Shown here piece by piece: positions 3,245-64,000 of a DNA stretch of 64,000 nucleotides. Position 1 is the first letter of the stretch. Every line of letters begins with the position of its first letter. Source of the stretch: Bacilli bacterium (GTDB lineage Bacteria; Bacillota_I; Bacilli_A; RFN20; CAG-826); NCBI GenBank assembly GCA_035361955.1, contig DAOSDC010000004.1, forward strand, positions 14,916-78,915, in the 5' to 3' direction. The notes below the pieces were generated by a model, which was not told where the DNA came from, made no database searches, and worked only from the letters and a program-made list of their open reading frames with translations. The position numbers and the translations under genes were made by a program.

Positions 3245-3253
3245 AGCAACCGA

Positions 3254-3285
3254 CCATCCCGCCCTCACAAAGCGGGATGGTTTTT
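3254..3285 (+). terminator. Rho-independent terminator: 9-bp perfect stem ccatcccgc/gcgggatgg, 9-nt loop, then TTTTT
   Basis: The inverted repeat and T-run are read directly from the sequence, between the two GH43-like paralogs. Confidence 0.7.
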
Positions 3286-3299
3286 GCTACCCTAATATC

Positions 3300-6781: not shown

Positions 6782-6808
6782 TTGATGTTCCTCCTTATGC
6801 GTTTTCGT

Positions 6809-7732
6809 CTAGATACGATTGACGCTGTTGAACACATGCATCAATTTATACTTAACTAATTGTTTGACCGCTTCTTTGGCGGGAGCCAAGAAGATGCGTG
6901 GTTCGAAGTTTGATGGATGATTTGCCAACGCTTCGCGTAGTGCGGTAATGTAAGTCATCCGAAAGTCAGTCGCGATATTGATTTTGCTGACGTTGATATG
7001 CATCGCTTGGATCAATAATTGCTCAGGTATGCCGCCGGCTTCTTTGATTTGGCCCCCATATTGATTGAATTTTGCTAATAGATCTGGGTCGATGTGACTG
7101 GCACCATGAAGCACAAGCGGGAAAGAAGGTAACTCTGCTTTTATTTTTTTGAGAATGTCGTAGCGGATATGTGGCACTTCATTCGCAAGAAATTTTTGGA
7201 GTCCATGGCCGGTACCAACGGACACAGCCAGGCAGTCCACACCCGTTTCTTTTATAAAACGGATTGCTTGCTCGGGATTGGTATAGCGCGTTTCTTCACT
7301 TCTGGTGGCATGGGCATCAAGTGGGCCGAGTTCGGCTTCCACCGTAGCTCCCTTCGCGTGTGCGTATGTGCATAAATCTTTTGTTAAAGCGACGTTGGTG
7401 TCGAAATCTAGACCCGAACCATCAAACATCACGCTGGTGAAGCCCTCGTCGATGCACTCTTTACAAAGGTCGATACTATGGCCGTGATCAAGGTGTAGCG
7501 CAAAGGGAATCTTCATATTTGCGGATATGACATTAACCATATCCTTAATATTGCCCGGGTGCATAAACGCGCGCGAACCTTTCGAAAGCGATAGCATCAC
7601 TGGTGAGTTCAGTTCATCGGCCGCTTCTAAAACTGCCTGGGCCATGGCAATGGAATCGATGTTGAAACAACCGATGGCATAACCGTTGGCAGTGGCCTTC
7701 GCTAACATTTCTTTGGCGTTTACAAGGGGCAT
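6809..7732 (-). CDS. Second class II ketose-bisphosphate aldolase paralog (FBA, tagatose-bisP or related aldolase)
   Basis: MPLVNAKEML... start, chosen by analogy to the family N-terminus (the track ORF extends to 7768). HLDHGHS motif. It lies in tandem with the first aldolase. Confidence 0.7.
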   Translation of the reverse strand: MPLVNAKEMLAKATANGYAIGCFNIDSIAMAQAVLEAADELNSPVMLSLSKGSRAFMHPGNIKDMVNVISANMKIPFALHLDHGHSIDLCKECIDEGFTSVMFDGSGLDFDTNVALTKDLCTYAHAKGATVEAELGPLDAHATRSEETRYTNPEQAIRFIKETGVDCLAVSVGTGHGLQKFLANEVPHIRYDILKKIKAELPSFPLVLHGASHIDPDLLAKFNQYGGQIKEAGGIPEQLLIQAMHINVSKINIATDFRMTYITALREALANHPSNFEPRIFLAPAKEAVKQLVKYKLMHVFNSVNRI

Positions 7733-7918
7733 ATCCACTTTTATGCAGACGTCGTAAAGGCGTCGCATCCTTCGTGCTAACTATACATTAGCACTATTGA
7801 TTTTAAAGATAAATGAAAAAAATATAAATTTGAAAACGCTTACTAAAAAAATATTGTTTATAAAATTAAATGGTGCTAACATATTTACAGAAAGATTCTT
7901 AGGAGGATCAAAAAAAAC

Positions 7919-43910: not shown

Positions 43911-45995
43911 TTAACGGCACACCACCCTTTTAGTCACGTAGTCATAACGGCTTTGTGCCGTCAATATTTCAATTCGCATCGTATAATCGGTATCTGGTAG
44001 CAATGCTTTGTTATACCGGTAAGTCGCTAATGGTTCGCCATCGTAGGCGAGGATGTCACCGAAATATACTTTCATGTTGACGATTTCATCATCCAATGGT
44101 GCCGACATGGCAATATTGATGTCGGATGATGAAGTAAGCTCTTGTCTAGTTGTGATATTCGTCAAATTGACCGCGGCCTGTTTTCTGGCGATTAACTCGT
44201 CGGCGATGACCACTCCATTATCGGCCATGCTTGGAACCGAATTGGCGGGCAGTTGCCGTACCACCAGCGATTGCTTGGTCGGAACTCTTAAATGCACGGA
44301 GCCTGATACATTACGGGCGAGGATCGTCTGTGATAAAGCGTCGAATAGGTCATATGCATATTCGGGACCTTCATAGTTAACGATATATGCCTGGTTATAC
44401 GGGTTATAAAACAAATAACCCGGCATTTGGGATGGCCCGAAACTATCGGTGGCGTTCAAATCAATGCGCAAAATTCCATTCACATTCGTTTTTTGGGCCA
44501 CAGCCCCGAGGCCCCCGATAAAAGCCGAGCTATACAAACTGAGATCTGAAGGTTGTCCAAACATCGTCGTGGCATCGCCCATGGCATAACCAGTCATTGA
44601 ATTCCAGCTTTGACGGAATCCTTCATAAATAAGCGTGCCTTTTGTATCAAATGGTAAATAACTGTTCATCGATTGGTGTGACAAACTATGCGTTTGCGGG
44701 AAAAAGTAGCGGGCATTGCTGACGAGATTGAGCATGTATTTGCCAATCGCGTTTGCGTAACGGGGGTCGTATTTGACCATGGGTGCTAACGTGGTGGCTA
44801 AATGAAGCGAATTCATCGCAAATGCATAATCGCCGGCTTGCCCGACGAGCCCATGGACCGGATAATCGCCAAACGAGCCGCTCATGACAGCCCAACCCGG
44901 CCGGAACGAGGAATCGCCATCAAATAGAAAATCAATGAATTTACCGATATCGTAGGAGGTGCCATGATGCGCGTTTAATATCGCGGCGATGTATGGTGCG
45001 TAATCGGTTAGAGCTTCATAATTCGGATTCTTTTGATAGGTTTGTAAATAATCGAGTACTTCCTTCGTACCGTCAAGATATTTTTCATCACCCGTTATTT
45101 TATAAGCCGAGTAGAATAACGCCGCGAGTCCACCATTGGGAGGCTCGATGTGACCTCCGGTAACCGTCGGAGATTCAAGCACGACGTTATATCCGACGAA
45201 TTCGTAGTTCGGCACCCCGCTTTTAACGAAATAAGGTAGCGCTTCGAGCCATTCATTCGCCCCGTTAAGCACGATTTCTTGCATGAAGGGGGTGTCAGGA
45301 TAAAGCTCATACAAGCGCGCGAATATTATTTGAGGAAACAGATCGTACCAGAAGCTTTGTCCTTGAACGCCATAGTTATGAACTAATTTCGACCCGGTGT
45401 CATAGCTTGAAAAAGTCATTTCCACGAAATCATAAGTAGTATCACCAAATTGTTGGTTTTGTTTGTCGATGCCGGCATAACTAGCGCCGAGCACTGAAGA
45501 AATCGTGGTCATTGCTTCGCTACCGGAACTGACGACGCGATTATCACCCACGTATGTCGGAAGCCCAAACGTGCGTTTTAGATAACCGGTTTCCAGTGGG
45601 TTATAAACTGGAGGCTGCCGTGGCTGGTCGAGCCAATATCCAATTGGGTTCCATGATGAAGGATCGCTTGAGATGTATGAAGGGATTCTGACAGTCGGAT
45701 CATTGGCAAAACCGAAAATGACCCGGTCGAGCTCTCGAGCCGCTGCTCCATAATCGTAATAGCGGTAATTAGTTGGAATATCTGGGAAAGAATTGATTTT
45801 TGAAATCGTTTTTTCAACACCGATATCGGACGCTAAAAAGGTGGGTTGCTCACTCGATTCACCGCTTGATTCGTTTGAAGTAATTGGCGTTGTAGACGAA
45901 GAAAAATCGCTAACTGAAAGCGATGAAGTTGCCGATTCACACGCTGATAGTAGCAACACCAGAATACCGAGCCCAGTTTTAAGATGTCGTTTTAT
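43911..45995 (-). CDS. Surface lipoprotein of unrecognised family (paralog 2 of 23494..26382). Putative novel glycan-active enzyme. It probably initiates at a non-ATG codon (ATA 45995 or ATT 45998).
   Basis: The track ORF begins with GTG-encoded 'M'LLLSAC at 45959, which is too short for a signal peptide. The in-frame upstream sequence after the TGA at 46008-46010 encodes G-G-E-I-I-KRHLKTGLGILVLLLSAC, a canonical lipoprotein signal, and is preceded by the SD GAGGTGG. The central region is homologous to the 23494 protein. Confidence 0.6.
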   Translation of the reverse strand: MKRHLKTGLGILVLLLSACESATSSLSVSDFSSSTTPITSNESSGESSEQPTFLASDIGVEKTISKINSFPDIPTNYRYYDYGAAARELDRVIFGFANDPTVRIPSYISSDPSSWNPIGYWLDQPRQPPVYNPLETGYLKRTFGLPTYVGDNRVVSSGSEAMTTISSVLGASYAGIDKQNQQFGDTTYDFVEMTFSSYDTGSKLVHNYGVQGQSFWYDLFPQIIFARLYELYPDTPFMQEIVLNGANEWLEALPYFVKSGVPNYEFVGYNVVLESPTVTGGHIEPPNGGLAALFYSAYKITGDEKYLDGTKEVLDYLQTYQKNPNYEALTDYAPYIAAILNAHHGTSYDIGKFIDFLFDGDSSFRPGWAVMSGSFGDYPVHGLVGQAGDYAFAMNSLHLATTLAPMVKYDPRYANAIGKYMLNLVSNARYFFPQTHSLSHQSMNSYLPFDTKGTLIYEGFRQSWNSMTGYAMGDATTMFGQPSDLSLYSSAFIGGLGAVAQKTNVNGILRIDLNATDSFGPSQMPGYLFYNPYNQAYIVNYEGPEYAYDLFDALSQTILARNVSGSVHLRVPTKQSLVVRQLPANSVPSMADNGVVIADELIARKQAAVNLTNITTRQELTSSSDINIAMSAPLDDEIVNMKVYFGDILAYDGEPLATYRYNKALLPDTDYTMRIEILTAQSRYDYVTKRVVCR

Positions 45996-49841: not shown

Positions 49842-51074
49842 TTAAACCTTCTTAAAGACAACAGCGGCGTTTTGGCCACCGAAACCCATATTGATATTCA
49901 TCGAAACGTTAACATTGCGTTTGACGCTATGTCCAAGCGTGTAGTTTAAATCGCAATCGGCATCGGTTTCCGTCGTGTTAATCGTGGGAGGAATCATGCC
50001 ATCGCGTAGCGCAAGCACGGCGACGATCGATTCGACAGCGCCAGCGGCGCCAAGCATGTGTCCGGTCATCGATTTTGTCGATGATAGATTCAATCGATAC
50101 GCATGTTCTTTAAACGCTTTCTTGACAGCGATCGACTCGATTTTATCGTTGAGGACGGTCGAAGTACCATGCGCGTTGATATAATCGACTTCTTCTGGTT
50201 TTAGATTAGCTTCTTGTAACGCATGAAGGAAACATGCGGCGATGCTTTCGCCTGTTTCATCGGGTGCCGTCATGTGGAAGGCATCGCTTGTGGCTCCAAA
50301 ACCAACGATTTCGGCATATATCTTGGCCCCTCGAGCAACGGCGTGCTCGTATTCTTCCAAAATCATGACGCCGGCACCTTCGCCGACGACGAAGCCGCTA
50401 CGCTGTTTATCAAACGGAATTGAAGCGCGCTGTGGATCGTTAGAAAAATTTAAGGCGCGCATGACAGTGAAACCGCCGATACCCAGCGGATTAATCGCCG
50501 ATTCGGCGCCACCCGCTAAAGCAATGTCAAGATATCCATGTTTAATATATCGAAACGCTTCGCCGATACCATTTGTGCCTGATGAACAAGCGGTAACCAC
50601 GGGAATGTTTGGTCCTTTGATGTTGTATTTGATGGTGATGTGACCGCCGATGAGGTTAACGATAGAATTTGGAATAAAGAAGGGGGACATGCGATCAGCG
50701 CCTTTTTGTCCAGCCACTTGGCTTTCCGACCAAATGGAATCGGTGCCACCCATTCCGGATGTGACAAAACTTCCAATCCGATAGCGGTCGATTTCGACAT
50801 GTGGCAATCCAGCGTCTTCATACGCTTGCGAAGCGGCGACAAGTCCTAATACGATTGTGCGGTCTAATCTGGCCACTTGGCGTGGTTCGACATAACGGCT
50901 CGGATCAAAGTTTTTAACTTCTCCAGCGATTTTTACGCGCATTTGCGAGGCATCGTAGTGGGTAATCGGTCCAATGCCATTAACTCCATTTAACATCGCT
51001 TGCCAAGTGGTATTCACATCCTGGCCCAGCGGCGTGACCATGCCTAAACCAGTGACGACAACTCTTCGTTCCAT
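49842..51074 (-). CDS. fabF: 3-oxoacyl-ACP synthase II
   Basis: Start at MERRVVVTGLG (RBS AAAGGAG). KAS active-site region ACSSG...HGTST. Confidence 0.9.
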   Translation of the reverse strand: MERRVVVTGLGMVTPLGQDVNTTWQAMLNGVNGIGPITHYDASQMRVKIAGEVKNFDPSRYVEPRQVARLDRTIVLGLVAASQAYEDAGLPHVEIDRYRIGSFVTSGMGGTDSIWSESQVAGQKGADRMSPFFIPNSIVNLIGGHITIKYNIKGPNIPVVTACSSGTNGIGEAFRYIKHGYLDIALAGGAESAINPLGIGGFTVMRALNFSNDPQRASIPFDKQRSGFVVGEGAGVMILEEYEHAVARGAKIYAEIVGFGATSDAFHMTAPDETGESIAACFLHALQEANLKPEEVDYINAHGTSTVLNDKIESIAVKKAFKEHAYRLNLSSTKSMTGHMLGAAGAVESIVAVLALRDGMIPPTINTTETDADCDLNYTLGHSVKRNVNVSMNINMGFGGQNAAVVFKKV

Positions 51075-51084
51075 ATTTGCTCCT

Positions 51085-51831
51085 TTAATACATTGATAAA
51101 CCACCGTCGACGCACAGCGTCACCCCGGTGATGTATGATGCTTGTTCGCTTGCTAAAAATATCGTGGCTGCGGCGACGTCTTGACATGTGCCCATGCGTC
51201 CAAGTGGAATCGCTTTTATGGCTGTTTCGATAATGACATCAGCAAGTTTTTTGGTCATGTCAGTGTCGATGAAACCTGGAACGATGGCGTTGACGGTAAT
51301 TTGTTTGGAGGCGAATTCGCGGGCTAATGATTTGGTGAGGCCGATGACGCCGGCTTTGGCAGCGCTGTAGTTACTTTGACCGGCATTTCCAAGCAGTCCC
51401 GATACCGAAGAAATGTTGATAATGCGGCCGCTACCCTGTCTCAGCATTGGTCGCGCGACATGTTTTGATAGTGCCCAAACCGCTTTCAAGTCAGTGGCGA
51501 TGACTCGGTCGAATTGCGCTTCGTTCATCCGCAAAATCAGGCCATCGTCGGTGACCCCAGCGTTATTAACGAGCACGTCGATGCGACCAAATGCTTCAAG
51601 CGTTTCTTTGATTAATCGTTCGCATTCACTGTATTTGGATATGTCGGCCTTGATGGACACGGCCTTGCCGCCTAGTTGTTTGATTTCTTCGATTAATTGG
51701 GCTGCAGCTTGTTCGCTGGAGTTATAATGAACGACTAATTGATAACCCTGTTTTGCGAAAGCTTGGGAGATCGCTTTACCGATACCAGCGGCGCCTCCGG
51801 TCACTAGGACGACTTGTTCAGATGAGTTCAT
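51085..51831 (-). CDS. fabG: 3-oxoacyl-ACP reductase (SDR)
   Basis: TGGAAGIGKA Rossmann motif. YSAAKAG catalytic motif. Confidence 0.9.
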   Translation of the reverse strand: MNSSEQVVLVTGGAAGIGKAISQAFAKQGYQLVVHYNSSEQAAAQLIEEIKQLGGKAVSIKADISKYSECERLIKETLEAFGRIDVLVNNAGVTDDGLILRMNEAQFDRVIATDLKAVWALSKHVARPMLRQGSGRIINISSVSGLLGNAGQSNYSAAKAGVIGLTKSLAREFASKQITVNAIVPGFIDTDMTKKLADVIIETAIKAIPLGRMGTCQDVAAATIFLASEQASYITGVTLCVDGGLSMY

Positions 51832-52774
51832 GGGTTTGTAACCATCCTTTCAAAGATTCAAAATCCGACGTTTTTTGATAACTGAATACTTCAATTTCCG
51901 GCGCGCATTTACGAATAAGTCCGGCGAGCACCGTGCCCGGTCCGATTTCGATCACACAGGTGATGCCAGCCTCTTTAAGCGCGGTCACCGTCTGCTCAAA
52001 TAATACAGGTTTTTCAATCTGTTCGGCCATTCGAAGTTTGATTTCATCAAAACATAGCGGTTTTGCGGTTGTATTCATAATGATTGGAGTGTGTGGTTTG
52101 GACAATGATGAGGTTTCTAGCGCTTGTTCAAAGGCGATACGGGCACTATGCATAAGTGGCGAGTGGAAGGCGCCGCTGACTGCTAGTGGCATCGCCCGTC
52201 TGGCTCCAGCCGATAGGCAGGCACCACTTGCGCGTTTGACGGCTTCGGTGTTTCCACTGATGACGATTTGGCCGGGGCAATTGAAATTGGCGGGAACAAC
52301 GATTTCTTGATCGGTTGAAGATTGGACACAGGCAGCAATTGTTTTAGGAATATCCAGGCCTAAAATAGCGGCCATCGCTCCTGGATGTTTTGTTGCCGCA
52401 TCATGCATCAACCTCGCGCGTATATTAATTAATCGAAACGCTTCTTTGGTGGAAAAAACGCCTCCAGCGTATAACGCGGCATATTCTCCAAGCGAGAAGC
52501 CACACAATGCTTCTGGCTTAAGATTCAATTCTTGGATTAGGTGTTCATATAAAAGCAGTTCGGCTAATAGCATGGCTGGTTGCGTATAGATCGTTTCATG
52601 AATTCGGGTATCGCCTTGAGCAATAATGTCTTGTAACGGAGCACCGGTTTCTTGTGTAGCGATATCAATGATGTTTTTAAGATTGGGGAGTCGCTCAATA
52701 ACATCAAGACCCATTCCTGCGGTTTGCGCTCCTTGCCCGGGGAAAGCTAGTGCTAATTTGTGTTTCATGCTCAT
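51818..52774 (-). CDS. fabD: Malonyl-CoA:ACP transacylase
   Basis: FPGQGAQ and GFSLGEYAALYAGG active-site motifs. The start overlaps the fabH stop (ATGA). Confidence 0.9.
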   Translation of the reverse strand: MSMKHKLALAFPGQGAQTAGMGLDVIERLPNLKNIIDIATQETGAPLQDIIAQGDTRIHETIYTQPAMLLAELLLYEHLIQELNLKPEALCGFSLGEYAALYAGGVFSTKEAFRLINIRARLMHDAATKHPGAMAAILGLDIPKTIAACVQSSTDQEIVVPANFNCPGQIVISGNTEAVKRASGACLSAGARRAMPLAVSGAFHSPLMHSARIAFEQALETSSLSKPHTPIIMNTTAKPLCFDEIKLRMAEQIEKPVLFEQTVTALKEAGITCVIEIGPGTVLAGLIRKCAPEIEVFSYQKTSDFESLKGWLQTHELI

Positions 52775-53706
52775 ATCGTAATAATGGCGCTTCCCCACGT
52801 TAGGCCGCCACCGAAGCCGACTAACATAATGCGCTCTCCGGCGACCTTGGGATGCGTGTCGAAATATTCGTCAAGGCCAATCGGGATGCTGGCCGCCGAG
52901 GTGTTACCGTATTTTTCAATGTTCATATGAAATAAATCAAGCGGGACTTGTAATGATTCGGCCACCGATTCGATGATGCGGGAGTTGGCTTGATGAGGAA
53001 TGATTTTTGCTAAGTCAGCCATACCAATATGATAATACGCCAGCACCTTGTACATTGCTTTTTTGATGGCTTCGATGGCAAAACGATAAACCTTGCGACC
53101 GTTCATGCTTACATGTTCTTTAACGATGAGCGCATCATCGATGTCACCTTCACTAGCGGTATAAAAAAGAGCCCGTTGATTCGATTCGCCGGCACCAATG
53201 ATAATCGCCCCAGCCCCATCTCCAAACAAAATGCACGTATTGCGGTCGGTATAGTCGACCATTTTGGTGATTACTTCGGCTCCAATCACTAACGCATAAC
53301 GGGCCATGCCCGATTGGACATAGGCGGCCGCGGCTTGGAGGGCATAAATAAATCCGGTGCAGGCAGCGCTGATGTCAAAACAGGTGATGTCGCGGTGGTT
53401 AAGACCAAGCTTTGATTGGACGAGGGAAGCCGTTGAAGGCACCTTCATATCAGGCGTAAACGTGGCCACGACGATCATGTCAATCATTTCTTTATCAATG
53501 TTGGCTTTGGCCAAAGCGTTTTGCGCGGCTTTTGTCGCTAAGTCACTCGTATCTTCGCCGACGGCTTTATGACGGGTTAAAATACCGGTGTGGTCAACAA
53601 TCCAATCATTGGAAGTGGCCACCATTTTTTCTAAATCTTCATTAGTGATAATTGTTTCGGGAATATAACGACCAGTCCCGACGATGCGTAAATGTGTTTC
53701 TTTCAT
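52771..53706 (-). CDS. fabH: 3-oxoacyl-ACP synthase III
   Basis: Cys-His-Asn KAS III pattern (AACTGF..., HQAN). Confidence 0.9.
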   Translation of the reverse strand: MKETHLRIVGTGRYIPETIITNEDLEKMVATSNDWIVDHTGILTRHKAVGEDTSDLATKAAQNALAKANIDKEMIDMIVVATFTPDMKVPSTASLVQSKLGLNHRDITCFDISAACTGFIYALQAAAAYVQSGMARYALVIGAEVITKMVDYTDRNTCILFGDGAGAIIIGAGESNQRALFYTASEGDIDDALIVKEHVSMNGRKVYRFAIEAIKKAMYKVLAYYHIGMADLAKIIPHQANSRIIESVAESLQVPLDLFHMNIEKYGNTSAASIPIGLDEYFDTHPKVAGERIMLVGFGGGLTWGSAIITI

Positions 53707-53715
53707 GGTGATGAT

Positions 53716-54528
53716 TCATTCTTTGTAAGCGCCGATGCGGCGGTATTTAAGGTAACGATTGTTAAGGATTGTTTCGCTTGATTGGCAACATAGACGCTTC
53801 AAGTCCTTTTTGATGGTTGTTCTAATTTGTCCAATCGTGTATTCAATGTCTTCATGGAATCCGCCGGGTGCTTCTTTAATCTTGCCATCGATGATGTGGT
53901 AAGATTGTAAATCTTCGGCGGTTAATTTCATGAGCCCAGCCGCCTTCTTGGCTAGTGTACTGTCTTTGAACAATATCGAAGCGAATCCTTCGGGTGATAG
54001 AATCGAATAAATACTATTTTCGAGCATGTACACCTTGTCGGCGACACCGATGGCGAGGGCGCCACCAGAGCCACCTTCGCTGATGACGAAAGCGATAATC
54101 GGGGTCTTGATGCTCGACATTTCAAATAAATTGTAAGCAATCGCTTGGGCTTGGCCGCGTTCTTCGGCTCCGATGCCCGGATATGCCCCAGGCGTGTCGA
54201 TGAACACGATGATGGGACGGTGGAACTTTTCGGCTTGACGCATCGCACGTAATGCTTTGCGGTATCCTTCGGGATGAGGCATGCCGAAATTACGTTTGAT
54301 GCGTTCTGGTGTCGAGATGCCTTTTTCTTGGGCGATGATTGTCACGGGTGTGCCTTCAAAACTACCGATGCCAACGATAAACGCCTTGTCATCGCTAAAT
54401 TGGCGGTCCCCCGCTAATTCGATGAAATCATCAAAGACACGCGGGATAATCGATTGTGAAGTCGGGCGTTTGGGATGACGCGCCAGTTTTATTCGAGCCC
54501 AAATGGCGTCTTCGTGAGTTTGACTCAT
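53716..54528 (-). CDS. accA: Acetyl-CoA carboxylase carboxyltransferase alpha subunit
   Basis: Typical AccA sequence (IDTPGAYPGIGAEERGQAQAIA). Confidence 0.9.
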   Translation of the reverse strand: MSQTHEDAIWARIKLARHPKRPTSQSIIPRVFDDFIELAGDRQFSDDKAFIVGIGSFEGTPVTIIAQEKGISTPERIKRNFGMPHPEGYRKALRAMRQAEKFHRPIIVFIDTPGAYPGIGAEERGQAQAIAYNLFEMSSIKTPIIAFVISEGGSGGALAIGVADKVYMLENSIYSILSPEGFASILFKDSTLAKKAAGLMKLTAEDLQSYHIIDGKIKEAPGGFHEDIEYTIGQIRTTIKKDLKRLCCQSSETILNNRYLKYRRIGAYKE

Positions 54529-55394
54529 TGGTGTGCACCATATCCGTGTAATTGTAATAGTTTGATTAACAAAGGTCGAATTTGCGCGCGTTTAGCCACG
54601 ATGTCGACTTGACCATGATCGAGTTGAAACGATGAAGTTTGGAAACCTTCTGGTAGATCTTGTTGGATTGTTTGCTTGATGACGCGGGGACCGGCGAAGC
54701 CGATTAAAGCGCCAGGTTCGGCGATAAGAATGTCGCCAAGCGAAGCAAAGCTGGCAGCGACGCCGCCTGTGGTCGGATCGGTAATCACCGAGATGTATAA
54801 AAGTCCTTTGTCGGAGTGACGTTTTATCGCGGCTGATGTTTTCGCCATTTGCATGAGTGAATAAATGCCTTCTTGCATGCGGGCGCCACCAGAGGCGGCC
54901 ACGATGATAAGGGGGAGTTTTTCGCTAATCGAAAGTTCGACTAGACGCGTGATTTTCTCGCCGACGACCGAACCCATCGATCCCATCATGAAAAATGGAT
55001 CAAGCACGCCGAATGCTAACGGAATACTACCGATTGTTCCCGTGCCAGACACAAACGCTTCGTTCATGTTCAGCAGTTGACTGCTTTTCTTCAGTTTCTC
55101 GTCATATTCAGGCATCTCTAGCGGATTTAGCGAAGTCATGCCCTCATCGATTTCATTAAATGAATTTTCATCAAGTGTCACGGTAATGCGTTCTTTGGCG
55201 CTTAACCGAAAATGGTGCTGGCAGTTAGGGCAAACTCGTAAATTGTCATCGAGCACTTTTTGATAAATTGCCCCATGGCATTTATCGCAAGCGATAAAAA
55301 GACCGCCCGGAATGTCGCGGGGCTTAATCTCAGGCGCACTATCCACCTTTTTCAGTTGGTTTTGCGCTTTAAGTTTTTCGATAATGGTGCCCAC
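54525..55394 (-). CDS. accD: Acetyl-CoA carboxylase carboxyltransferase beta subunit
   Basis: N-terminal Cys4 zinc finger CDKCHGAIYQ...CPNCQHH plus a carboxyltransferase domain. Confidence 0.9.
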   Translation of the reverse strand: MGTIIEKLKAQNQLKKVDSAPEIKPRDIPGGLFIACDKCHGAIYQKVLDDNLRVCPNCQHHFRLSAKERITVTLDENSFNEIDEGMTSLNPLEMPEYDEKLKKSSQLLNMNEAFVSGTGTIGSIPLAFGVLDPFFMMGSMGSVVGEKITRLVELSISEKLPLIIVAASGGARMQEGIYSLMQMAKTSAAIKRHSDKGLLYISVITDPTTGGVAASFASLGDILIAEPGALIGFAGPRVIKQTIQQDLPEGFQTSSFQLDHGQVDIVAKRAQIRPLLIKLLQLHGYGAHQ

Positions 55395-56740
55395 TATTTG
55401 GCGCTCTCCAATAGCCTGGTGATGAACCCGGTATCGTAATGACCGTTGATGAACGATTCATTACCGATCACGCATTCTAAAAAGTCGATGTTGGTCTTAA
55501 TCCCTTCAACGCAAAATTCTTTTAACGCCGCGCGCATTTTTTCAATCGCTTCGGCGCGAGTCGGCGCATGGGCGACTAGCTTCGCTAGAAGCGAATCATA
55601 ATGGCACGGAATCGTGTATCCGGCGTATATATGCGTGTCTACCCGAATACCCATGCCACCTGGCAGCGAGACTTTTTCAATCCTACCCGCACATGGCATA
55701 AAGTTACTCTCGGTGTCTTCGGCGTTAATCCGACATTCGATCGCATGACCGCGACTCGTGATTTCGGTTCGTTTGAAACCAACCGGTTGATTCAATGCGA
55801 TGCGAATTTGCTCTTTGACGATGTCGATGCCGGTGACAGCTTCGGTGACTGGATGCTCGACTTGAATGCGCGTGTTCATTTCAATAAAATAGAAGTTGAA
55901 TTTTTGATCGACTAGAAATTCCATCGTGCCCGCCCCTAAATATTTGACGGCTTTGGCAATGCGAATGGCAGCCTGACCCATGCGCCGACGTAATGAGACG
56001 TCAATTAATGGGGAAGGCGTTTCTTCGATGATTTTTTGATTACGCCGTTGCAAGGAACAATCGCGTTCGCCTAAATAGTAGACGTTGCCGCTGCGATCGG
56101 CTAGAATTTGTACCTCGATATGGCGTGGGGTCTCGATGTATTTTTCGACGTAGAGACGCCCACTTCCAAAACTGGTTTCGGCTTCAAGTGACGTTTTGTG
56201 GAATATTGTTTTGAATTCGGCTTCCGAACGAATAATCGAGATGCCGCGACCACCACCACCATTGGTAGCTTTAAGCATGACCGGATAGCCGATTTTCCTG
56301 GCTACTGCTAATCCTTCAGACAATGTTTCAATCGTTCCTTCACTTCCGGTTACGACAGGTACATGGGCGGCTTTAGCGATCTTTTTGGCTGTGGCCTTGT
56401 CACCCATGCTTCGCATAGATGCGGCCGAAGGTCCGATAAATGTGATGTGGCAGCCTTCGACGATTTCGGCAAACTGGGCGTTTTCAGATAAAAAGCCATA
56501 GCCAGGATGAATAAGTGAGACTCCAGTGGCTAAGGCGGCGGAAATAATGTTATTGATGTTGAGATAGCTTTCTTTTGGTGAAGGACCGCCGATACAAACC
56601 GCTTCGTCAGCGAGGCGGACATGTAAACTGTCTTGATCGGCCGTCGAATATACGGCAACCGTTTCCAGTCCCAGTTCGCGACAAGCACGAATAATGCGGA
56701 CCGCGATTTCACCGCGATTGGCAATCAATACCTTGGGCAT
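55394..56740 (-). CDS. accC: Biotin carboxylase
   Basis: ATP-grasp biotin carboxylase motifs throughout (MLKATNGGGGRGI, EMNTRIQVEHPVTE). Confidence 0.9.
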   Translation of the reverse strand: MPKVLIANRGEIAVRIIRACRELGLETVAVYSTADQDSLHVRLADEAVCIGGPSPKESYLNINNIISAALATGVSLIHPGYGFLSENAQFAEIVEGCHITFIGPSAASMRSMGDKATAKKIAKAAHVPVVTGSEGTIETLSEGLAVARKIGYPVMLKATNGGGGRGISIIRSEAEFKTIFHKTSLEAETSFGSGRLYVEKYIETPRHIEVQILADRSGNVYYLGERDCSLQRRNQKIIEETPSPLIDVSLRRRMGQAAIRIAKAVKYLGAGTMEFLVDQKFNFYFIEMNTRIQVEHPVTEAVTGIDIVKEQIRIALNQPVGFKRTEITSRGHAIECRINAEDTESNFMPCAGRIEKVSLPGGMGIRVDTHIYAGYTIPCHYDSLLAKLVAHAPTRAEAIEKMRAALKEFCVEGIKTNIDFLECVIGNESFINGHYDTGFITRLLESAK

Positions 56741-56745
56741 AATGG

Positions 56746-57207
56746 TTACTCTTTCGTCCTAATGACGATCATGGACTGGTCAAAACCGACGACCGATCCG
56801 TTTTTAACGAGTTTCTTTTCGACGACACCATCGCAAGGCGCGGCGATTTCATTCATGATTTTCATCGCCTCGATGATACAAACGGTATCGCCTTTTTTGA
56901 CATTTTGTCCAACTTGAACAAATGGACTCCCTTCGGGAGAATCGCCATCGTAGTAGGTACCCACAAGCGGTGATTTGACATGACGAAGATAAATTTCATC
57001 AGGGTCAGGCGGAATTTGATCTTTAATCGCCGGATTTTGAAGTGCAAGATCGGGATTGGTAATGACCGTTTTTATTTCATGAGTTGACGGGGGCGGAGTG
57101 TCTAGTTTGGACACCGACAATTTGAAATCGCCTTCTTCGATATGAAGCGTGGTCAGCGATGATGCTTCAAAATAGCGAAGCAACTCGTTAATGCGTTTGT
57201 AGTCCAT
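56746..57207 (-). CDS. accB: Biotin carboxyl carrier protein
   Basis: Biotinylation motif EAMKIMNEI. Confidence 0.9.
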   Translation of the reverse strand: MDYKRINELLRYFEASSLTTLHIEEGDFKLSVSKLDTPPPSTHEIKTVITNPDLALQNPAIKDQIPPDPDEIYLRHVKSPLVGTYYDGDSPEGSPFVQVGQNVKKGDTVCIIEAMKIMNEIAAPCDGVVEKKLVKNGSVVGFDQSMIVIRTKE

Positions 57208-58992: not shown

Positions 58993-59128
58993 CACGCATT
59001 ATATATGTACTTTCTCATTAATGAAAAGTAGTCAATATTAAAATAGCTTCTTTAACATTTCTGCATTATGCTTGCTATAATGACCACACCGATTGTCAAC
59101 TGCACGATTTCACCTAGGAGACATATCC

Positions 59129-60301
59129 ATGGTCATTAAACCGATTATCCGTTCCAATGTTTTTCTAACAGCGCATCCAATCGGATGCTTTGAGCACGCC
59201 ATGGAACAATTTTATGAAGCCAAACGCCTACCGTCATTTAAAGGACCAAAAGAAGTACTGATTATCGGAGGCTCGTCCGGTTATGGCTTTGCTTCACGCG
59301 TCGCTTTGACTATTGCTGGTGGAGCCAACACCATTAATGTTTCATACGAATCCGGTCCTAAAGCAGAACGTTCAGGCACGGCCGGTTATTGGCACAACCT
59401 CGCATTTGAAAAACTAGTGAAAGATTTGCCCTCAATCCATCGCGATTTCCTCGGTGATGCGTTTTCTGCTCAAATGAAGCAACAAGTCATCGAACATATG
59501 ATTCAAACAGGACGAAAAATCGATTTAGTCATCTATTCGATTGCCGCAGGGGCGCGTTTTGATGAACAAAGACAAGAAACGATTCGTTCACATATTAAGA
59601 CAATCGGCGAACCCATCGTTGGTAAAACAATCGATATTGCGACGAAATCGGTGAAAGAAATAACTGTGACCGGCGGAACCGAACAAGAAGTCAAAGACAC
59701 CGTGTTCGTAATGGGCGGTAGCGATTGGGCTGATTGGATTCATCGATTAGACGACGCAGGTGTATTAGCCACAGGCGTTAAAACGATTTCATACACCTAT
59801 ATCGGAAGCGATTCGACCGCGCGCATTTATCGCGATGGCACGATTGGACAAGCCAAAGAGCATTTAGAACAAACGGCGCTGGATATGAACCCATTGCTAC
59901 AGAAAAAATATCGAGGCGAAGCCTTAATATCTTCAAGCAAAGCCGTGGTCACCAAAGCCAGCGTCTTTATCCCCCAAATGCCGATTTATGTTTCATGCCT
60001 GATTGAGGTCATGAGCAAACATGGTGTCCACGAAGCGATTTTGGAACATAAATATCGTTTGTTTAAAGATATGGTTTATGGAGATAAAAGACTAGTTGAT
60101 GATAAGGGCCGCATTAGAATTGATCACCAGGAAATGGACCCCTCGATACAACGGGAAGTAGTCAACATGATGAAAAATCTGACTGACGAGCAACTGCTAG
60201 CGCTCGATGGTACCAAACGTTTCTTGAGCGAGTTTTATCAAATCCATGGCTTTGGATATCCAAACATCGATTACGAACAACCAGTCGTTATTGAAGAGTA
60301 A
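59129..60301 (+). CDS. fabV: Enoyl-ACP reductase, FabV/Ter (trans-2-enoyl-CoA reductase) family
   Basis: Start chosen at MVIKPIIRSNVFLTAHPIGC (RBS AGGAGA 8 nt upstream; the track ORF starts at 59093). The FabV/Ter family pattern is recalled: TAHP.GC, GPK.VL.IG.S.GYG.A.R.A, a ~400-aa length, and a Y...K catalytic region. Confidence 0.7.
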   Translation: MVIKPIIRSNVFLTAHPIGCFEHAMEQFYEAKRLPSFKGPKEVLIIGGSSGYGFASRVALTIAGGANTINVSYESGPKAERSGTAGYWHNLAFEKLVKDLPSIHRDFLGDAFSAQMKQQVIEHMIQTGRKIDLVIYSIAAGARFDEQRQETIRSHIKTIGEPIVGKTIDIATKSVKEITVTGGTEQEVKDTVFVMGGSDWADWIHRLDDAGVLATGVKTISYTYIGSDSTARIYRDGTIGQAKEHLEQTALDMNPLLQKKYRGEALISSSKAVVTKASVFIPQMPIYVSCLIEVMSKHGVHEAILEHKYRLFKDMVYGDKRLVDDKGRIRIDHQEMDPSIQREVVNMMKNLTDEQLLALDGTKRFLSEFYQIHGFGYPNIDYEQPVVIEE

Positions 60302-60369: not shown

Positions 60370-60816
60370 ATGAGTATTCATCCCGATTTAATCGCTCCTT
60401 GTGGCATGAACTGCGCGTTATGCGTGGCCTATCAGTTTCGTGAAAAAGATTTAAACAAACTTGGGTATCATCGAACCTATTGTCCGGGATGTATTTCCCG
60501 AGGAAAACATTGTACTTTCACTGGTGGTCTTTGCGAGCAACTAGCTAACGGCACGATTCGGTTTTGCCATGAGTGCGAGTTATTTCCCTGTCCGAGGCTA
60601 AAACGACTCGACAAGCGTTACCGGACCAAATATGACATGAGCATGATTGCCAATCAACAGATGATGAAAGAGCAAGGCATCCAAGCCTTCCTTGCTAGCC
60701 AAGAAGCCAAATGGTCGTGTCCAACATGTGGCGATATCATTTGCACACACATGCACATGTGCTTGGAATGCAATCGGCAGCGACTTAACAAGAAGACTAC
60801 TAGACACACAGGCTGA
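60370..60816 (+). CDS. Small Cys-rich protein (16 Cys, several CxxC pairs), DUF3795-like. Putative metal/FeS-binding protein of unknown function.
   Basis: CGMNCALC, CPGC, CHEC..C, CPTC and CLEC motifs. Confidence 0.45.
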   Translation: MSIHPDLIAPCGMNCALCVAYQFREKDLNKLGYHRTYCPGCISRGKHCTFTGGLCEQLANGTIRFCHECELFPCPRLKRLDKRYRTKYDMSMIANQQMMKEQGIQAFLASQEAKWSCPTCGDIICTHMHMCLECNRQRLNKKTTRHTG

Positions 60817-60897: not shown

Positions 60898-60936
60898 GAA
60901 GGGTTTATCGAATATTTACGATGAAAGCCCTTTTTC
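60898..60936 (+). terminator. Rho-independent terminator (aagggttt / aaagccctt stem with one bulge, 17-nt loop, then TTTTC)
   Basis: Seen directly, about 80 nt downstream of the DUF3795-like gene. Confidence 0.5.
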
Positions 60937-60979
60937 TTGTTGAAATAACAAATCGCGATAAATAATGCTTGACTCAAAC

Positions 60980-61007
60980 TGGTCATCACCTAAAATTAGG
61001 AGTAATC
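60980..61007 (+). promoter_or_regulatory. Sigma-A-type promoter driving the T-box leader: -35 TTGACT, 16-nt spacer, -10 TAAAAT
   Basis: Hexamers read directly. The predicted TSS is about 61014. Confidence 0.55.
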
Positions 61008-61013
61008 ACATAA

Positions 61014-61299
61014 CAAAAGACCGTGATGAAGAGATGCGTGAATTGTGGGCAATAGAGAGTTTGCGGTTGGTGGAAGCAAACACCGAGAGTTAACGATATA
61101 CACTTCGGAGTCAGGCGCCGAACGAGTTAGTAGGCCGCCTCGGAATCCTCCCGTTAGCGAGGCTAGAGTTGTAAGACTCGATAAGCGATGGAAAATCCAT
61201 AATCAGGGTGGTACCACGGAATCTCGCAAGGTTTTCGTCCCTACATGAGTGAAGGGCGGAAATCTTTTTATTTACTCCCTTCAAAACGAAAGGAGCATT
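61014..61299 (+). promoter_or_regulatory. T-box riboswitch leader (tRNA-sensing)
   Basis: T-box motif AATCAGGGTGGTACCACGG (61201-61219), matching the consensus AAUUAGGGUGGNACCGCGG at 17/19. F-box-like CCGTTA (61151-61156). Stem-I elements AGAGAG (61054-59) and GUUGG (61066-70), plus a GA-rich K-turn-like tgatgaagag (61023-61032). Alternative pairings tgaaggg/cccttca and ctccctt/aaaggag lie around the SD (61283-61289). Confidence 0.65.
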
Positions 61300-62742
61300 A
61301 TGCCACAATTAGCCCGTTACAAAGTCGCGCCGTTTCCACTGGAAATGCATAAAGCGCGCATCGTTCAAAAACTGAATTTGCTACCACTTGAAGATCGCTT
61401 AAAAGCGATACAGGAAGCAGGCAATAACACGTTTCTGCTCAAAAATCGCGATGTGTTTCTTGACATGCTAACCGATAGCGGCACTAACGCCATGAGCGAC
61501 CGTCAACTCGCGGCGATGACGCTGGCCGATGATTCTTACGCTGGTAGTGAAACGTTTTTCCGCCTCGAGGCGATGCTACAAAAATTCTTCGGGATGCCCT
61601 ACTTTTTACCAGCGCACCAAGGACGCGCCTGTGAACACATACTGGCTAAAGTATTCGTCAAACCAGGCGATGTCGCTGTCATGAACTATCATTTCACGAC
61701 GACGAAAGCCCATATCATGGAAATGGGCGGGACGGTCATCGAATGTCATCTTGACGAAGCAATCGAATCCGAATCCACGCATCCATTTAAAGGCGATATG
61801 GATCTTGAAAAACTGCAAGATGTTATTGCCAGTAATCGCATTTCGTTCGTCAGAATTGAACTTGGAACAAATTTGATTGGTGGCCAACCCATCTCGTTAA
61901 CCAACATCGAAGCCGTTAGTAAGATGTGCAAGAAACACAACTTATTGCTAATCATGGATGCCAGCTTATTGAGTGATAACTTATTCTTCAATAAAACCAG
62001 GGAAAAACGTTGCCAAAGCATGTCGATTCACGAGATCAATTTAGCAATTTCTCGATGTGCGGATATCATCTATTTTTCGGCAAGAAAACTAGGTAGCGCT
62101 CGCGGTGGCGGCCTTGTAATGAGGGATAAATCGCTATTCGATAAAATGAAAAATCTCGTGCCACTCTATGAAGGTTTCTTGACTTACGGGGGCATGTCGG
62201 TTCGCGAAATGGAGGCATTGACGATTGGTCTTGAAGAAACGCTTGATCAAGATGTCATTTCACAAGGTCCGCAATTCATACAAGCATTCGCCGATATGTT
62301 AATAAAGCACAAGGTGCCGATTGTTACTCCGGCGGGTGGTCTTGGAGTTCATATTGACGCTAGGGCATTTTTATCTCATGTACCGGGAGAACAATATCCG
62401 GCTGGGGGACTAGCGGCCGCCATCTATATCGTATCCGGTGCCCGTGGTATGGAGCGCGGTACGATTTCAGAAACGCGCAATCCCGATGGAAGCGACCACA
62501 TCGCCAGCATGGAACTCGTGCGGTTGGCACTACCTCGCCGCGTCTTCTCGCTCTCGCATATTACATATATCGTCGATCGCCTGATTTGGCTGTTTGAAAA
62601 TCGCCATCTAATTGGTGGCTTAACGTTTATTGAAGAACCGCAAATAATGCGTTTCTTCATGGGAAGACTGGCGCCGATTGGTGATTGGCAAGAAAAATTG
62701 ACCGCTAAATTTCGCGCGGATTTTGGAAATGATGCAATTTAG
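61300..62742 (+). CDS. Beta-eliminating lyase of the tyrosine phenol-lyase/tryptophanase family (PLP-dependent). From recalled reference sequences it resembles TPL more than TnaA.
   Basis: Start at MPQLARY (RBS AAAGGAG 6 nt upstream; the track ORF starts at 61249). LTDSGTNAMSD, the PHQGR region, the PLP-lysine region SARKLGSARGGG, and a full-length match to TnaA/TPL architecture. Confidence 0.8.
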   Translation: MPQLARYKVAPFPLEMHKARIVQKLNLLPLEDRLKAIQEAGNNTFLLKNRDVFLDMLTDSGTNAMSDRQLAAMTLADDSYAGSETFFRLEAMLQKFFGMPYFLPAHQGRACEHILAKVFVKPGDVAVMNYHFTTTKAHIMEMGGTVIECHLDEAIESESTHPFKGDMDLEKLQDVIASNRISFVRIELGTNLIGGQPISLTNIEAVSKMCKKHNLLLIMDASLLSDNLFFNKTREKRCQSMSIHEINLAISRCADIIYFSARKLGSARGGGLVMRDKSLFDKMKNLVPLYEGFLTYGGMSVREMEALTIGLEETLDQDVISQGPQFIQAFADMLIKHKVPIVTPAGGLGVHIDARAFLSHVPGEQYPAGGLAAAIYIVSGARGMERGTISETRNPDGSDHIASMELVRLALPRRVFSLSHITYIVDRLIWLFENRHLIGGLTFIEEPQIMRFFMGRLAPIGDWQEKLTAKFRADFGNDAI

Positions 62743-62748
62743 AATATA

Positions 62749-64000
62749 TCAATGAGTATGTTTTCGATGGAATTTTAGAGGGAAATTTTGAGCGATAACG
62801 ACAACGATACCGGCGACAAGCCCGGCCGTAAAACCATTGTTATATAAATCAAAACCGCCCTGTAGCGCTAGTGCATAAGGCGAGATTAACAAATGCAGGA
62901 AGCCTGCCAATAGACCATAAATGATGCCAAACTTTCCAGCCACAGGTGCTAGCGCAGTTACAAAGAATATCGCGATGCTCGGACCCAAATTTGTAATTGA
63001 GAAACCAGGAATCAATGATGCCAACAACAATCCGGCGATGACCGGTGTCGAGTTTTGGATATGTTTGCCATAGCTTCCAAAACCAATTAACGTGAACATC
63101 GCGGCAATCATCGGTCCAGATATTTTAAGATTTAAAGATAAAATGATGATTAAACTAAAGACACCCAAACTGCCGATGTTGAATAGTGTCGTCGCAAAGC
63201 CATACTCCTTGACATAATCACTTGGCAAATTTCCTGGACTTTGTAGTAAGCGAAGCCATGATTTAAAGACGTTCTTGTTCAGGAAGAATGCGGCAATCAT
63301 CAATAATAGGGAAATGACTAAAAGCGACCAAAACAATATCGAGTGATAGGCTTCGGTCGTCATTGGGGTAACCGTTAGCGTGACATTAAAGGCGCGTAAC
63401 AAACTGGCAAACACCATGGCAATGAATCCAAGGCCAAAACCAGTGTTATAAAGATTGTAGCCTTGATGGAATTTACCGACGATGGAGACAACCATTGGTG
63501 TCAAGAAACCGGCGATAATCCCAGCTAATATGCCAAGTGGTAGACTCGCCCATAGCGGCAGTCCCGGAATTCCAAACGCGATGAAACTAGCCAAAGGAGC
63601 GATACCTGAAGAAAAAAGGAAGGTTCCAGTATATTGATTAAGTTGCTGCCGTTTGATGCGCACGTATAAAAAGAAGCCAAGCCAAACAGGCAAAAAATTC
63701 CAGATATTTTTACCAAAGAAAGCGAAGCCGGCGATCGTTAAGACACCAGCGATGGATACGCCTGAAAAATTGGCCTTGATTAGTCGCAAAGCGAATATCG
63801 ACATCCAAGTCGTGATCCACACGTTTAATAGCGTACCGGCAAAGCCACCGACACCAAGATAATCAGTCACTAAAAGCGAGGGATGAATCTGGATCGCCCA
63901 AAAGCCTTGAATTGTCGCTAGAAACGGAGCGGACAATAAAATGATTAGCGCTCCCGTAAGCGCTAATGAGAGTAGAACCGTGGATTTGATTTTAATAGCG
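62749..64000 (-). CDS. 5'-truncated polytopic integral membrane protein (at least 10 TM segments) of unknown function. Its frame is open to the window end.
   Basis: The in-frame translation upstream of the track's first codon (TTG at 63936) continues with no stop to nt 64000. It is highly hydrophobic with repeated G-rich TM helices. No family is recognised. Confidence 0.5.
   Translation of the reverse strand, partial: AIKIKSTVLLSLALTGALIILLSAPFLATIQGFWAIQIHPSLLVTDYLGVGGFAGTLLNVWITTWMSIFALRLIKANFSGVSIAGVLTIAGFAFFGKNIWNFLPVWLGFFLYVRIKRQQLNQYTGTFLFSSGIAPLASFIAFGIPGLPLWASLPLGILAGIIAGFLTPMVVSIVGKFHQGYNLYNTGFGLGFIAMVFASLLRAFNVTLTVTPMTTEAYHSILFWSLLVISLLLMIAAFFLNKNVFKSWLRLLQSPGNLPSDYVKEYGFATTLFNIGSLGVFSLIIILSLNLKISGPMIAAMFTLIGFGSYGKHIQNSTPVIAGLLLASLIPGFSITNLGPSIAIFFVTALAPVAGKFGIIYGLLAGFLHLLISPYALALQGGFDLYNNGFTAGLVAGIVVVIAQNFPLKFHRKHTH

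Follow-up and report, generated by a model that had tools for sequence, protein, structure and literature searches.

Locus and T-box leader

The DNA analysed here, called the window below, was a stretch of 64,000 nucleotides (nt) from a Bacilli bacterium (assembly GCA_035361955.1, contig DAOSDC010000004.1, positions 14,916-78,915). Within this window, a gene encoding a beta-eliminating lyase dependent on pyridoxal 5'-phosphate (PLP) was preceded by a promoter and a T-box riboswitch leader, and was flanked by genes for a cysteine-rich DUF3795 protein and a DUF1576 membrane protein (Table 1). It was concluded with high confidence that the leader is a Tyr-specific T-box acting on transcription. 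The fuller reading, namely a canonical transcription-attenuating tRNA-Tyr T-box on a single-gene unit, the tyrosine phenol-lyase (TPL)-like product of which supplies tyrosine, with a relay to the ribosome-binding site as a second layer, was considered rather probable when taken as a whole.

The leader was matched by the Rfam family RF00230 over the whole model (1-219) with 99.4 bits (E 1.1e-20), and no other Rfam family was matched in the window. The score exceeded the curated gathering score of 93 bits by just ~6 bits. The S-turn motifs (AGUA/GAA) of the specifier loop were degenerate. An earlier note on this DNA, made from the letters alone, had proposed a T-box leader downstream of a good TTGACT/TAAAAT promoter; the full-length Rfam match bore this out, and the motifs that it had named (AGAGAG, distal loop, F-box, T-box sequence, UAC-A and promoter) were all found where it had placed them. 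The RNA itself belongs to a very well-known class, and the leader of the window would be picked up by any annotation that uses Rfam.

The sigma-70-type promoter, recognized by consensus match alone, agreed with the consensus at 10 of 12 bases and was located ~18 nt 5' of the T-box start, which is a suitable distance. The upstream DUF3795 gene possessed its own intrinsic terminator (-15.5 kcal/mol, z = -3.05, one of 200 shuffled sequences folding equally well), hence the lyase gene forms an independent transcription unit. Since the downstream DUF1576 gene is convergent, the unit consists of the promoter, the leader and one gene. The stop codons of the two convergent genes were only 6 nt apart, and folding of the interval between them revealed no evident terminator.

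Table 1. Features of the lyase locus (window coordinates)
Feature	Position	Strand	Description
DUF3795 gene	60370-60816	+	cysteine-rich protein; just 5' of the leader; own terminator 60898-60933
Intrinsic terminator of the DUF3795 gene	60898-60941	+	hairpin 60898-60933, then U-rich tail
Sigma-70-type promoter	60969-60996	+	TTGACT 60969-60974, 16-nt spacer, TAAAAT 60991-60996
T-box leader	61014-61245	+	RF00230; Stem I, Stem II, IIA/B region, Stem III, antiterminator
Stem I	61020-61111	+	Rfam alignment
GA/K-turn region of Stem I	61022-61029 with 61107-61109	+	GGA at 61107-61109; Rfam alignment
Stem I helix below the specifier loop	61028-61031 / 61103-61106	+	GAAG / CUUC; Rfam alignment
Specifier loop	61032-61036 / 61096-61102	+	Rfam alignment
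AG bulge	61054-61059	+	AGAGAG; Rfam alignment
Distal loop	61065-61075	+	GGUUGGUGGAA; Rfam alignment
Specifier codon and 3' purine	61099-61102	+	UAC (Tyr) 61099-61101, conserved purine A61102; Rfam codon positions
F-box	61151-61156	+	CCGUUA, Stem IIA/B region; Rfam alignment
Stem III	61187-61200	+	GAUGGA AAA UCCAU; Rfam alignment
Conserved T-box sequence	61201-61219	+	AAUCAGGGUGGUACCACGG; Rfam alignment
Antiterminator helix	61205-61242	+	AGGG 61205-61208 ... CCCU 61239-61242; Rfam alignment
T-box bulge	61209-61212	+	UGGU, partner of the tRNA 3' end ACCA; Rfam alignment
Intrinsic terminator of the leader	61229-61273	+	hairpin 61229-61265 (-15.2 kcal/mol), U-tract UUUUUAUUU 61265-61273
Antiterminator 3' strand	61232-61242	+	UUUUCGUCCCU
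Proposed "anti-anti-SD"	61250-61256	+	UGAAGGG, loop and 3' arm of the terminator; pairs with 61277-61283
Post-terminator segment	61275-61283	+	CUCCCUUCA; anti-SD CUCCCUU 61275-61281 overlapping CCCUUCA 61277-61283
Shine-Dalgarno sequence (SD)	61289-61295	+	AAAGGAG, 4 nt 5' of the ATG
Lyase gene	61300-62742	+	480-residue PLP-dependent beta-eliminating lyase; ATG at 61300
DUF1576 gene	62749-63936	-	395-residue membrane protein, two DUF1576 repeats; convergent with the lyase gene

Specifier and tRNA

The 3' side of the specifier loop read AUAUACA and was followed directly by the CUUC strand of the helix below the loop. The codon UAC occupied the codon positions of the Rfam model. To compare it among relatives, orthologous leaders were drawn from 80 species-representative genomes, from metagenomes and from contigs encoding near-identical proteins. 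UAC was invariant in 37 of 37 full-length leaders examined (the window and 36 others) upstream of lyase orthologs, while the bases around it varied (AAUACAC, GUUACAC, GAAUACAU, GAAUACGC and others). The base that followed UAC was A or G in 35 of these 37 leaders, and a UGGU bulge was present in all 24 leaders scored. The candidate Tyr specifier UAC-A of the earlier note was thereby retained.

Bacterial tRNA-Tyr carries a GUA anticodon and an A73 discriminator base, and the UGGU bulge is as expected for A73. We infer from these matches that the leader responds to tRNA-Tyr. No tRNA-Tyr gene was found in the related lyase loci, where the tRNAs near the lyase gene were those for Cys, Pro and Leu.

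Expression platform

By folding, a terminator hairpin was found that shared 61229-61242 with the 3' strand of the antiterminator, the two structures being mutually exclusive. Such a hairpin, containing a ...CGUCCYU strand and followed by a U-run, was present in 24 of the 24 leaders analysed. Because of this constancy, classical transcription attenuation is predicted to be the main mechanism. The SD lay outside the competing hairpin, which ends at 61265, so the arrangement is not that of a translational T-box. The earlier note had favored SD sequestration over a classic terminator, and hence a translational T-box; this claim was not upheld, given the stable hairpin with its U-tract in the window and in all the other leaders analysed.

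Two leaders of closely related lyases (75-76% identical; L105:560-703 and L112:1-84) lacked a simple terminator hairpin before the U-tract. They contained instead an ACCAUCG-UUUUUUAUUAG-CGAUGG hairpin with the U-tract as its loop, and the ACCAUCG strand could in addition base-pair with the 5' strand of Stem III. These leaders may use a different expression platform. As they did not fit the terminator-finding routine, both were left out of the statistics.

A possible relay to the Shine-Dalgarno sequence

The segment behind the U-tract was examined by folding two states, one with the terminator enforced and the other with its 5' arm withheld, as in the antiterminator. When the terminator was enforced, a CUCC.UUC / GAA.GGAG hairpin (61275-61295, -6.8 kcal/mol) covered the SD. 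When the 5' arm was withheld, 61250-61256 paired with 61277-61283 and GGAG became free. The predicted unpaired probability of the SD in the window thus increased from 0.20 in the terminator state to 0.59 in the antiterminator state.

In close relatives the segment behind the U-tract was the complement of the terminator loop and 3' arm within the same leader, and the sequences differed between leaders (Table 2). Since register and sequences were too divergent for a trustworthy MAFFT alignment, a permutation of cognate against non-cognate duplexes was used instead of column-wise covariation. In the Bacilli clade of the window, 13 distinct leaders were compared; their cognate duplexes averaged -12.6 kcal/mol and the non-cognate ones -8.5 kcal/mol. 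The cognate mean was reached in none of 20000 permutations, with the same outcome for three segment definitions; under a stricter, earlier definition, two of 20000 permutations were as good. The pairing signal was weaker in a wider Firmicutes set (63-409 of 20000 permutations).

Table 2. Complementary segments in the window and its close relatives
Leader	Terminator loop/3' arm	Post-U-tract segment
Window	UGAAGGG	CCCUUCA
L083	AAGGACG	CGUCCUU
L085	GAUUGCG	CGCAAUC
L089	GCAAGG	CCUUGC
L095	AGCUAG	CUAGCU
L096	AGUUAGG	CCUAACU
L099	GGAGAAAA	UUUUCUCC
L109	GCAAG	CUUGU

For 12 of the 13 clade leaders, a more accessible SD was predicted in the antiterminator state than in the terminator state. The mean gain in unpaired probability was +0.33 over 12 of them (Wilcoxon p = 0.0007), and in the thirteenth, L109, the value changed from 0.13 to 0.77. 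The wider Firmicutes set displayed no such trend (-0.09).

These predictions suggest that a relay of this kind may keep leaky read-through transcripts untranslated. It looks like an addition to transcription attenuation and not a replacement for it, and the chances that it operates as a second layer in the Bacilli lineage of the window were judged to be evenly balanced. Both pairings proposed in the earlier note (tgaaggg/cccttca and ctccctt/AAAGGAG) therefore exist, and the former co-varies among relatives; only their role was revised, since they would supplement the terminator.

The regulated enzyme

The lyase matched Pfam PF01212 (Beta_elim_lyase) with 154.6 bits against a cut-off of 27, and the NCBIfam tryptophanase subfamily NF009709 (PRK13238) with 562.6 bits against 285, in agreement with the TPL/tryptophanase-family target that the earlier note had assigned to the leader. 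It scored below the equivalog cut-offs for tryptophanase (324.8 versus 825.8 bits for TIGR02617 and 385.9 versus 750 for NF053783). The best matches among solved structures were TPLs (~368 bits, E about 1e-109), with tryptophanases behind at 312 bits or less; a similarity of this degree to solved TPLs settles the fold. The lyase was 40.7% identical to the Citrobacter freundii TPL over 445 residues and 34.7% identical to Escherichia coli TnaA. As TPL and TnaA are closer to each other (43.5%) than to the lyase of the window, the lyase clade is, judged by sequence identity, a third and deeper branch of the family that lies outside both.

The protein and 80 orthologs were aligned to TPL (numbering checked against PDB 2EZ1) and to TnaA. 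Tyr71, Gln98-Gly99-Arg100, Asn185, Asp214, Ser254, the PLP-binding Lys257 and Arg404 were retained in all 81 clade members. Five active-site positions have been described that part TPL from tryptophan indole-lyase (PMC5805759). At four of these (Thr124, Met379, Arg381 and Phe448) the TPL-type residue was found, invariant in the 81 members (Table 3), and the indole-specific Asp137, Ile396 and His463 (E. coli numbering) were replaced by Thr, Arg and Phe in the lyase of the window.

Table 3. Residues at the positions that discriminate TPL from tryptophan indole-lyase
Position	TPL	Indole-lyase	Lyase clade
124	Thr	Asp	Thr
288	Met	Phe	Phe
379	Met	Val	Met
381	Arg	Ile	Arg
448	Phe	His	Phe

Two substitutions, R217L and K256R, were likewise invariant in 81 of 81 members, both reference enzymes having Arg and Lys there, and V283P was found in most members, where both references have Val. 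At the fifth of the discriminating positions the clade shows M288F, the residue of the indole-lyase. Arg217 is presumably a contact to PLP O3'; a literature search on Arg217 of TPL found nothing. As far as residues can indicate it, the pocket is of the phenol type and the environment of the cofactor is different. An identical protein has been deposited from a metagenome-assembled genome as "tryptophanase [Bacilli bacterium]", a name that is probably wrong as to the substrate.

Conservation of the leader

A T-box was located directly 5' of the lyase ortholog in 23 of 80 GTDB species-level loci searched with Rfam. Seventeen of these leaders scored at or above the gathering score, and six were full-length matches below it (E 1e-7 or lower). 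The leader was also found upstream of the lyase gene in most of the close metagenomic relatives. The loci that combine a T-box with the lyase came from Bacilli, Erysipelotrichaceae, Acholeplasmataceae, Christensenellaceae, Oscillospiraceae, Clostridiaceae, Defluviitaleaceae, Clostridia, Halanaerobiales, Dethiobacter and others. Because 23 of 80 loci and most close relatives carry a leader with an identical specifier, the association of T-box and lyase is far beyond chance.

Lyases of the same clade, at 55-69% identity, were encoded in Rhodopseudomonas palustris, Oxalobacter, Bacteroidales, Planctomycetaceae, Acidobacteriota, Propionibacteriaceae, Elusimicrobium, Endomicrobium, Verrucomicrobiota, Fusobacteria and a Methanomassiliicoccaceae archaeon (L001-L080), and many of the lyases from distant phyla originated from termite guts and digesters. 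Such a distribution suggests an extensive horizontal transfer of a stand-alone lyase gene.

Neighboring genes and the rest of the window

An all-against-all BLAST of the open reading frames of 81 loci revealed no gene that consistently adjoined the lyase gene. Apparent clusters of neighbors were rejected as antisense shadow reading frames inside the lyase gene itself. The DUF3795 gene preceded the leader in the closest relative, L082, and in no other locus, and the DUF1576 gene was not conserved beside the lyase gene.

A metagenome-assembled Clostridiaceae genome (L045:2625-7073) contained three T-boxes in a row: a Leu T-box (CUC) on a divergent leuS, the Tyr T-box (UAC) on the lyase gene and a Trp T-box (UGG, with a UGGC bulge) on a TrpB-like gene directly downstream. 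TrpB converts indole and serine to tryptophan. The locus is possibly a small amino-acid starvation cluster in which phenol and indole salvage lie side by side. Other riboswitches were also recorded in lyase loci: NiCo riboswitches just 3' of the gene in two unrelated Firmicutes loci (L033:5671-5771 and L014:5598-5704) and an FMN riboswitch in a third lyase locus (L002:8474-8597).

The rest of the window comprised genes for carbohydrate utilization (mannoside, GH43) and a fab/acc operon. No aromatic amino-acid gene was found in it, a result that covers these 64 kb and does not speak for the genome as a whole. Two tandem paralogues of 811 and 830 residues combining GH43 and 3-keto-disaccharide-hydrolase were encoded at 809-5729 (+), and two tandem genes of the class II fructose-bisphosphate-aldolase family at 5840-7768 (-). 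Large open reading frames (962, 550, 503 and 682 residues) with no Pfam match at E <= 1e-5 were located at 23494-28067 (-), 35325-36836 (-) and 43911-45959 (-), inside a mannoside-utilization cluster (GH125, GH130, DUF1861, ABC transporter). A complete acc/fab fatty-acid synthesis operon was found at 49842-57207 (-), and a separate FabV-type enoyl-ACP reductase gene at 59093-60301 (+), its product scoring 392 against an equivalog cut-off of 400 and above the subfamily cut-off.

Discussion

We propose the following mechanism. Transcription would start near 61003, and the codon UAC, displayed by Stem I, would be read by the GUA anticodon of tRNA-Tyr. An uncharged tRNA has a free ACCA end, which would pair with the UGGU bulge and stabilize the antiterminator, thus allowing read-through into the lyase gene. 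With a charged tRNA, the strand 61229-61242 would join the terminator hairpin and transcription would stop at the U-tract. As the antiterminator holds the 5' arm of the terminator, the freed UGAAGGG would capture CCCUUCA, a segment which, left uncaptured, would pair as CUCC.UUC with the SD region. Efficient translation of read-through transcripts in this Bacilli lineage would consequently require the tRNA-bound conformation.

T-boxes activate their genes in response to the uncharged form of the cognate tRNA. Because this T-box would switch the gene on when tRNA-Tyr is uncharged, the lyase would be produced when tyrosine is scarce and would supply this amino acid, most plausibly either by the reverse TPL reaction (from phenol, pyruvate and ammonium) or by beta-replacement (from phenol and serine or cysteine). 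A tyrosine-supplying role of the enzyme, deduced from this regulatory logic, appears marginally the likelier case. The known targets of Tyr T-boxes (tyrS, NhaC-type transporters, aro genes and phenylalanine-4-hydroxylase) raise the supply or charging of tyrosine (PMC2494555). Tyrosine, acting through TyrR, induces the classical tpl gene, which is considered degradative, a logic opposite to that of a T-box; nevertheless, TPL forms tyrosine from phenol, pyruvate and ammonia with a kcat 1.5-fold that of the elimination, as well as from serine and phenol by beta-replacement (PMC10170061). The earlier note had suggested a synthetic direction towards tyrosine or towards tryptophan from indole. The former is in line with the T-box logic, while the latter was abandoned in view of the lack of UGG, the UGGU bulge and a pocket with Thr, Arg and Phe in place of Asp, Ile and His. 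Phenol is abundant in guts and digesters, and most of the lyase sequences were of gut, termite and digester origin, which fits phenol salvage. The Clostridiaceae locus, where a Tyr-T-box/lyase unit is followed by a Trp-T-box/TrpB-like unit, offers a suggestive parallel.

Several observations weigh against this reading. No T-box was found at the lyase gene outside the Firmicutes (Proteobacteria, Bacteroidota, Actinomycetota, Planctomycetota, Elusimicrobiota, the archaeon and elsewhere), which agrees with the known taxonomic distribution of T-boxes; in addition, the Rfam check gave none at four Firmicutes lyase loci, nor at the AT-rich Bacilli relatives L108, L110 and L111. The last three have just 117-157 nt upstream of the lyase gene and encode lyases of 68-70% identity, so the leader was lost, or never gained, in these members of the window's clade. 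The match of anticodon and discriminator draws on general knowledge of bacterial tRNA-Tyr, no tRNA gene being present in the window. The support for the relay is a thermodynamic prediction among phylogenetically related sequences; furthermore, the terminator 3' arm is bound to be rich in purines and to resemble an SD, and the complementarity may partly be a by-product of this. Within the clade, L085 had no SD effect and L091 nearly no pairing. The lyase scored below the TPL equivalog cut-off (421.4 versus 720.7 bits for TIGR02618), and its chemistry may differ owing to the clade-specific R217L and K256R. The biosynthetic direction follows from the regulatory logic alone, and the Km values of classical TPL are high: 1.1 mM for phenol, 12 mM for pyruvate and 20 mM for ammonia (PMC10170061).

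Other explanations of the leader were also weighed. It is very unlikely that the leader answers another tRNA, be it tRNA-Trp or, through a shifted frame (ACA or AUA), tRNA-Thr or tRNA-Ile. Shifted specifier frames do occur according to TBDB (PMC7778990), and a shift by +1 gives the Thr codon ACN in all leaders, AC being fixed; however, in the Rfam alignment UAC fills the codon positions and is followed by the conserved purine, whereas a codon ACN would leave the first helix pair as the next base and no purine would follow. The -1 frame varies among leaders (AUA, UUA, GUA), the specifier loop contains no UGG, the genuine Trp T-box of L045 combines UGG with a UGGC bulge where UGGU is found here, and the regulated enzyme has a tyrosine-type pocket. 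The Ile (AUA), Thr (ACA) and Trp readings were therefore rejected on frame variation, helix position and the lack of UGG. A purely translational T-box, in which no terminator functions and tRNA binding governs the accessibility of the SD alone, was found just as improbable. Such a design would agree with the existence of the two pairings, which shift the predicted SD accessibility, and with a simple consensus terminator scan that flagged nothing at the leader. That scanner accepts neither bulges nor loops longer than 8 nt, and its result was rejected as a true absence of a terminator, because folding gave a hairpin with a bulge and a structured loop, followed by the U-tract, and this combination was common to all leaders analysed. 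Moreover, the SD is located ~25 nt past the U-tract and is not included in the hairpin competing with the antiterminator, in contrast to the actinobacterial ileS-type leaders. A third possibility concerns the relay only: the co-varying pairing of the terminator 3' half with the post-U-tract segment may be real and still unrelated to translation, serving for example to protect read-through mRNA from RNases or to avoid misfolding. L085 and L095 pair strongly with a small predicted SD effect, and the hairpin of L105 and L112 with its U-tract loop has no obvious anti-SD, both of which favor this view; against it, the segment lies directly 5' of the SD, which is predicted to open in the antiterminator state in nearly every clade leader. 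We regard this possibility as doubtful.

The T-box may also be as described while the lyase does not make tyrosine from phenol, being catabolic or acting on another phenolic or beta-substituted amino acid, with some other rationale for the link to tRNA-Tyr, for example the release of a tyrosine-related metabolite, phenol detoxification, or nitrogen and carbon scavenging. This alternative would accommodate the score under the TPL equivalog cut-off, the R217L, K256R, M288F and (mostly) V283P changes, the non-Firmicutes orthologs that lack T-box control, the lack of a tyrosine-related gene as a conserved neighbor and the high Km values of the reverse reaction in classical TPL. It would, however, make the induction counter-productive, as a tyrosine-consuming enzyme would be produced when tRNA-Tyr is uncharged, and it would set the lyase apart from all other documented Tyr T-box targets, which increase tyrosine supply or charging (PMC2494555). 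The phenol-binding Thr124, Arg381 and Phe448 are invariant in the 81 sequences, and the retention of UAC across distant Firmicutes argues for a tyrosine-specific benefit. An enzyme that does not use phenol in this way is thus thought unlikely.

The attenuating tRNA-Tyr T-box proposed here may be compared with several known systems. It shares with the tyrS leader of Bacillus subtilis, the founding Tyr T-box, the UAC with its purine, UGGU, the K-turn, the AG bulge, the distal loop and the competing antiterminator and terminator with a U-tract. It differs from that leader in controlling a lyase and not tyrosyl-tRNA synthetase, in a degenerate S-turn and in the probable extra SD relay. The phenylalanine-4-hydroxylase of the Bacillus cereus group (Wels et al. 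2008, PMC2494555) is likewise an enzyme under a Tyr T-box that yields tyrosine in one step and bypasses the shikimate route; that enzyme is pterin-dependent with phenylalanine as the precursor, whereas the one described here is a PLP lyase proposed to act in reverse on phenol. With the TPL of Citrobacter freundii and Erwinia herbicola (EC 4.1.99.2; PDB 2EZ1, 1TPL) the lyase has in common the fold family, the catalytic set and Thr124, Met379, Arg381 and Phe448, but it falls below the equivalog cut-off, carries R217L, K256R, V283P and M288F, and appears wired for induction by tyrosine limitation. The NF009709 subfamily and the PLP chemistry are common to TnaA (EC 4.1.99.1), from which the lyase differs by its low identity, by scores below both equivalog cut-offs and by the missing Asp137, Ile396 and His463. 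As in the actinobacterial ileS-type translational T-boxes, tRNA-dependent SD accessibility is plausible in the leader of the window as a second layer; in the former the SD is inside a sequestrator hairpin and there is no U-tract, whereas the latter has a full terminator and the SD would be reached through an intermediate segment.

The earlier note had called a lyase of this family an unusual T-box target, and such a target was indeed absent from the surveyed T-box literature, including Wels 2008 and TBDB. No paper linking T-boxes to TPL or tryptophanase was found in the literature search, which included the texts and supplements of these two; the surveys of Vitreschak 2008 and Gutierrez-Preciado 2009 lay outside it, and a prior mention there is possible. 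The search likewise found no report of a T-box that combines a terminator with SD control. What appears to be new here is the class of the target gene and its physiological implication.

Regulatory logic is among the few clues from sequence alone to the in vivo direction of a reversible enzyme, and a Tyr-starvation switch found across many Firmicutes argues that a whole uncharacterized enzyme clade supplies tyrosine. The broadest form of this idea takes the entire third clade, which is widespread in anaerobes of guts, termites and digesters and at present annotated as tryptophanase, to consist of anabolic enzymes that build tyrosine from phenol of the environment (with pyruvate and ammonium, or with serine), and takes the T-box in the Bacilli lineage of the window to act on both transcription and translation; it is put forward tentatively and is, on balance, improbable as a whole. 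Phenol is a toxic end product of tyrosine fermentation and a precursor of the uremic toxin phenyl sulfate. If the proposal is true, other members of the community would turn phenol back into an amino acid, a phenol-to-tyrosine cross-feeding parallel to indole salvage by TrpB, and metagenomic surveys that count these lyase genes as "tryptophanase", that is, as indole producers, would mis-assign them. R217L and K256R would then identify a naturally occurring TPL variant that may be adapted to synthesis, of interest for the production of L-tyrosine and L-DOPA analogues, and the terminator with its SD relay would represent an undescribed design of expression platform for the T-box class.

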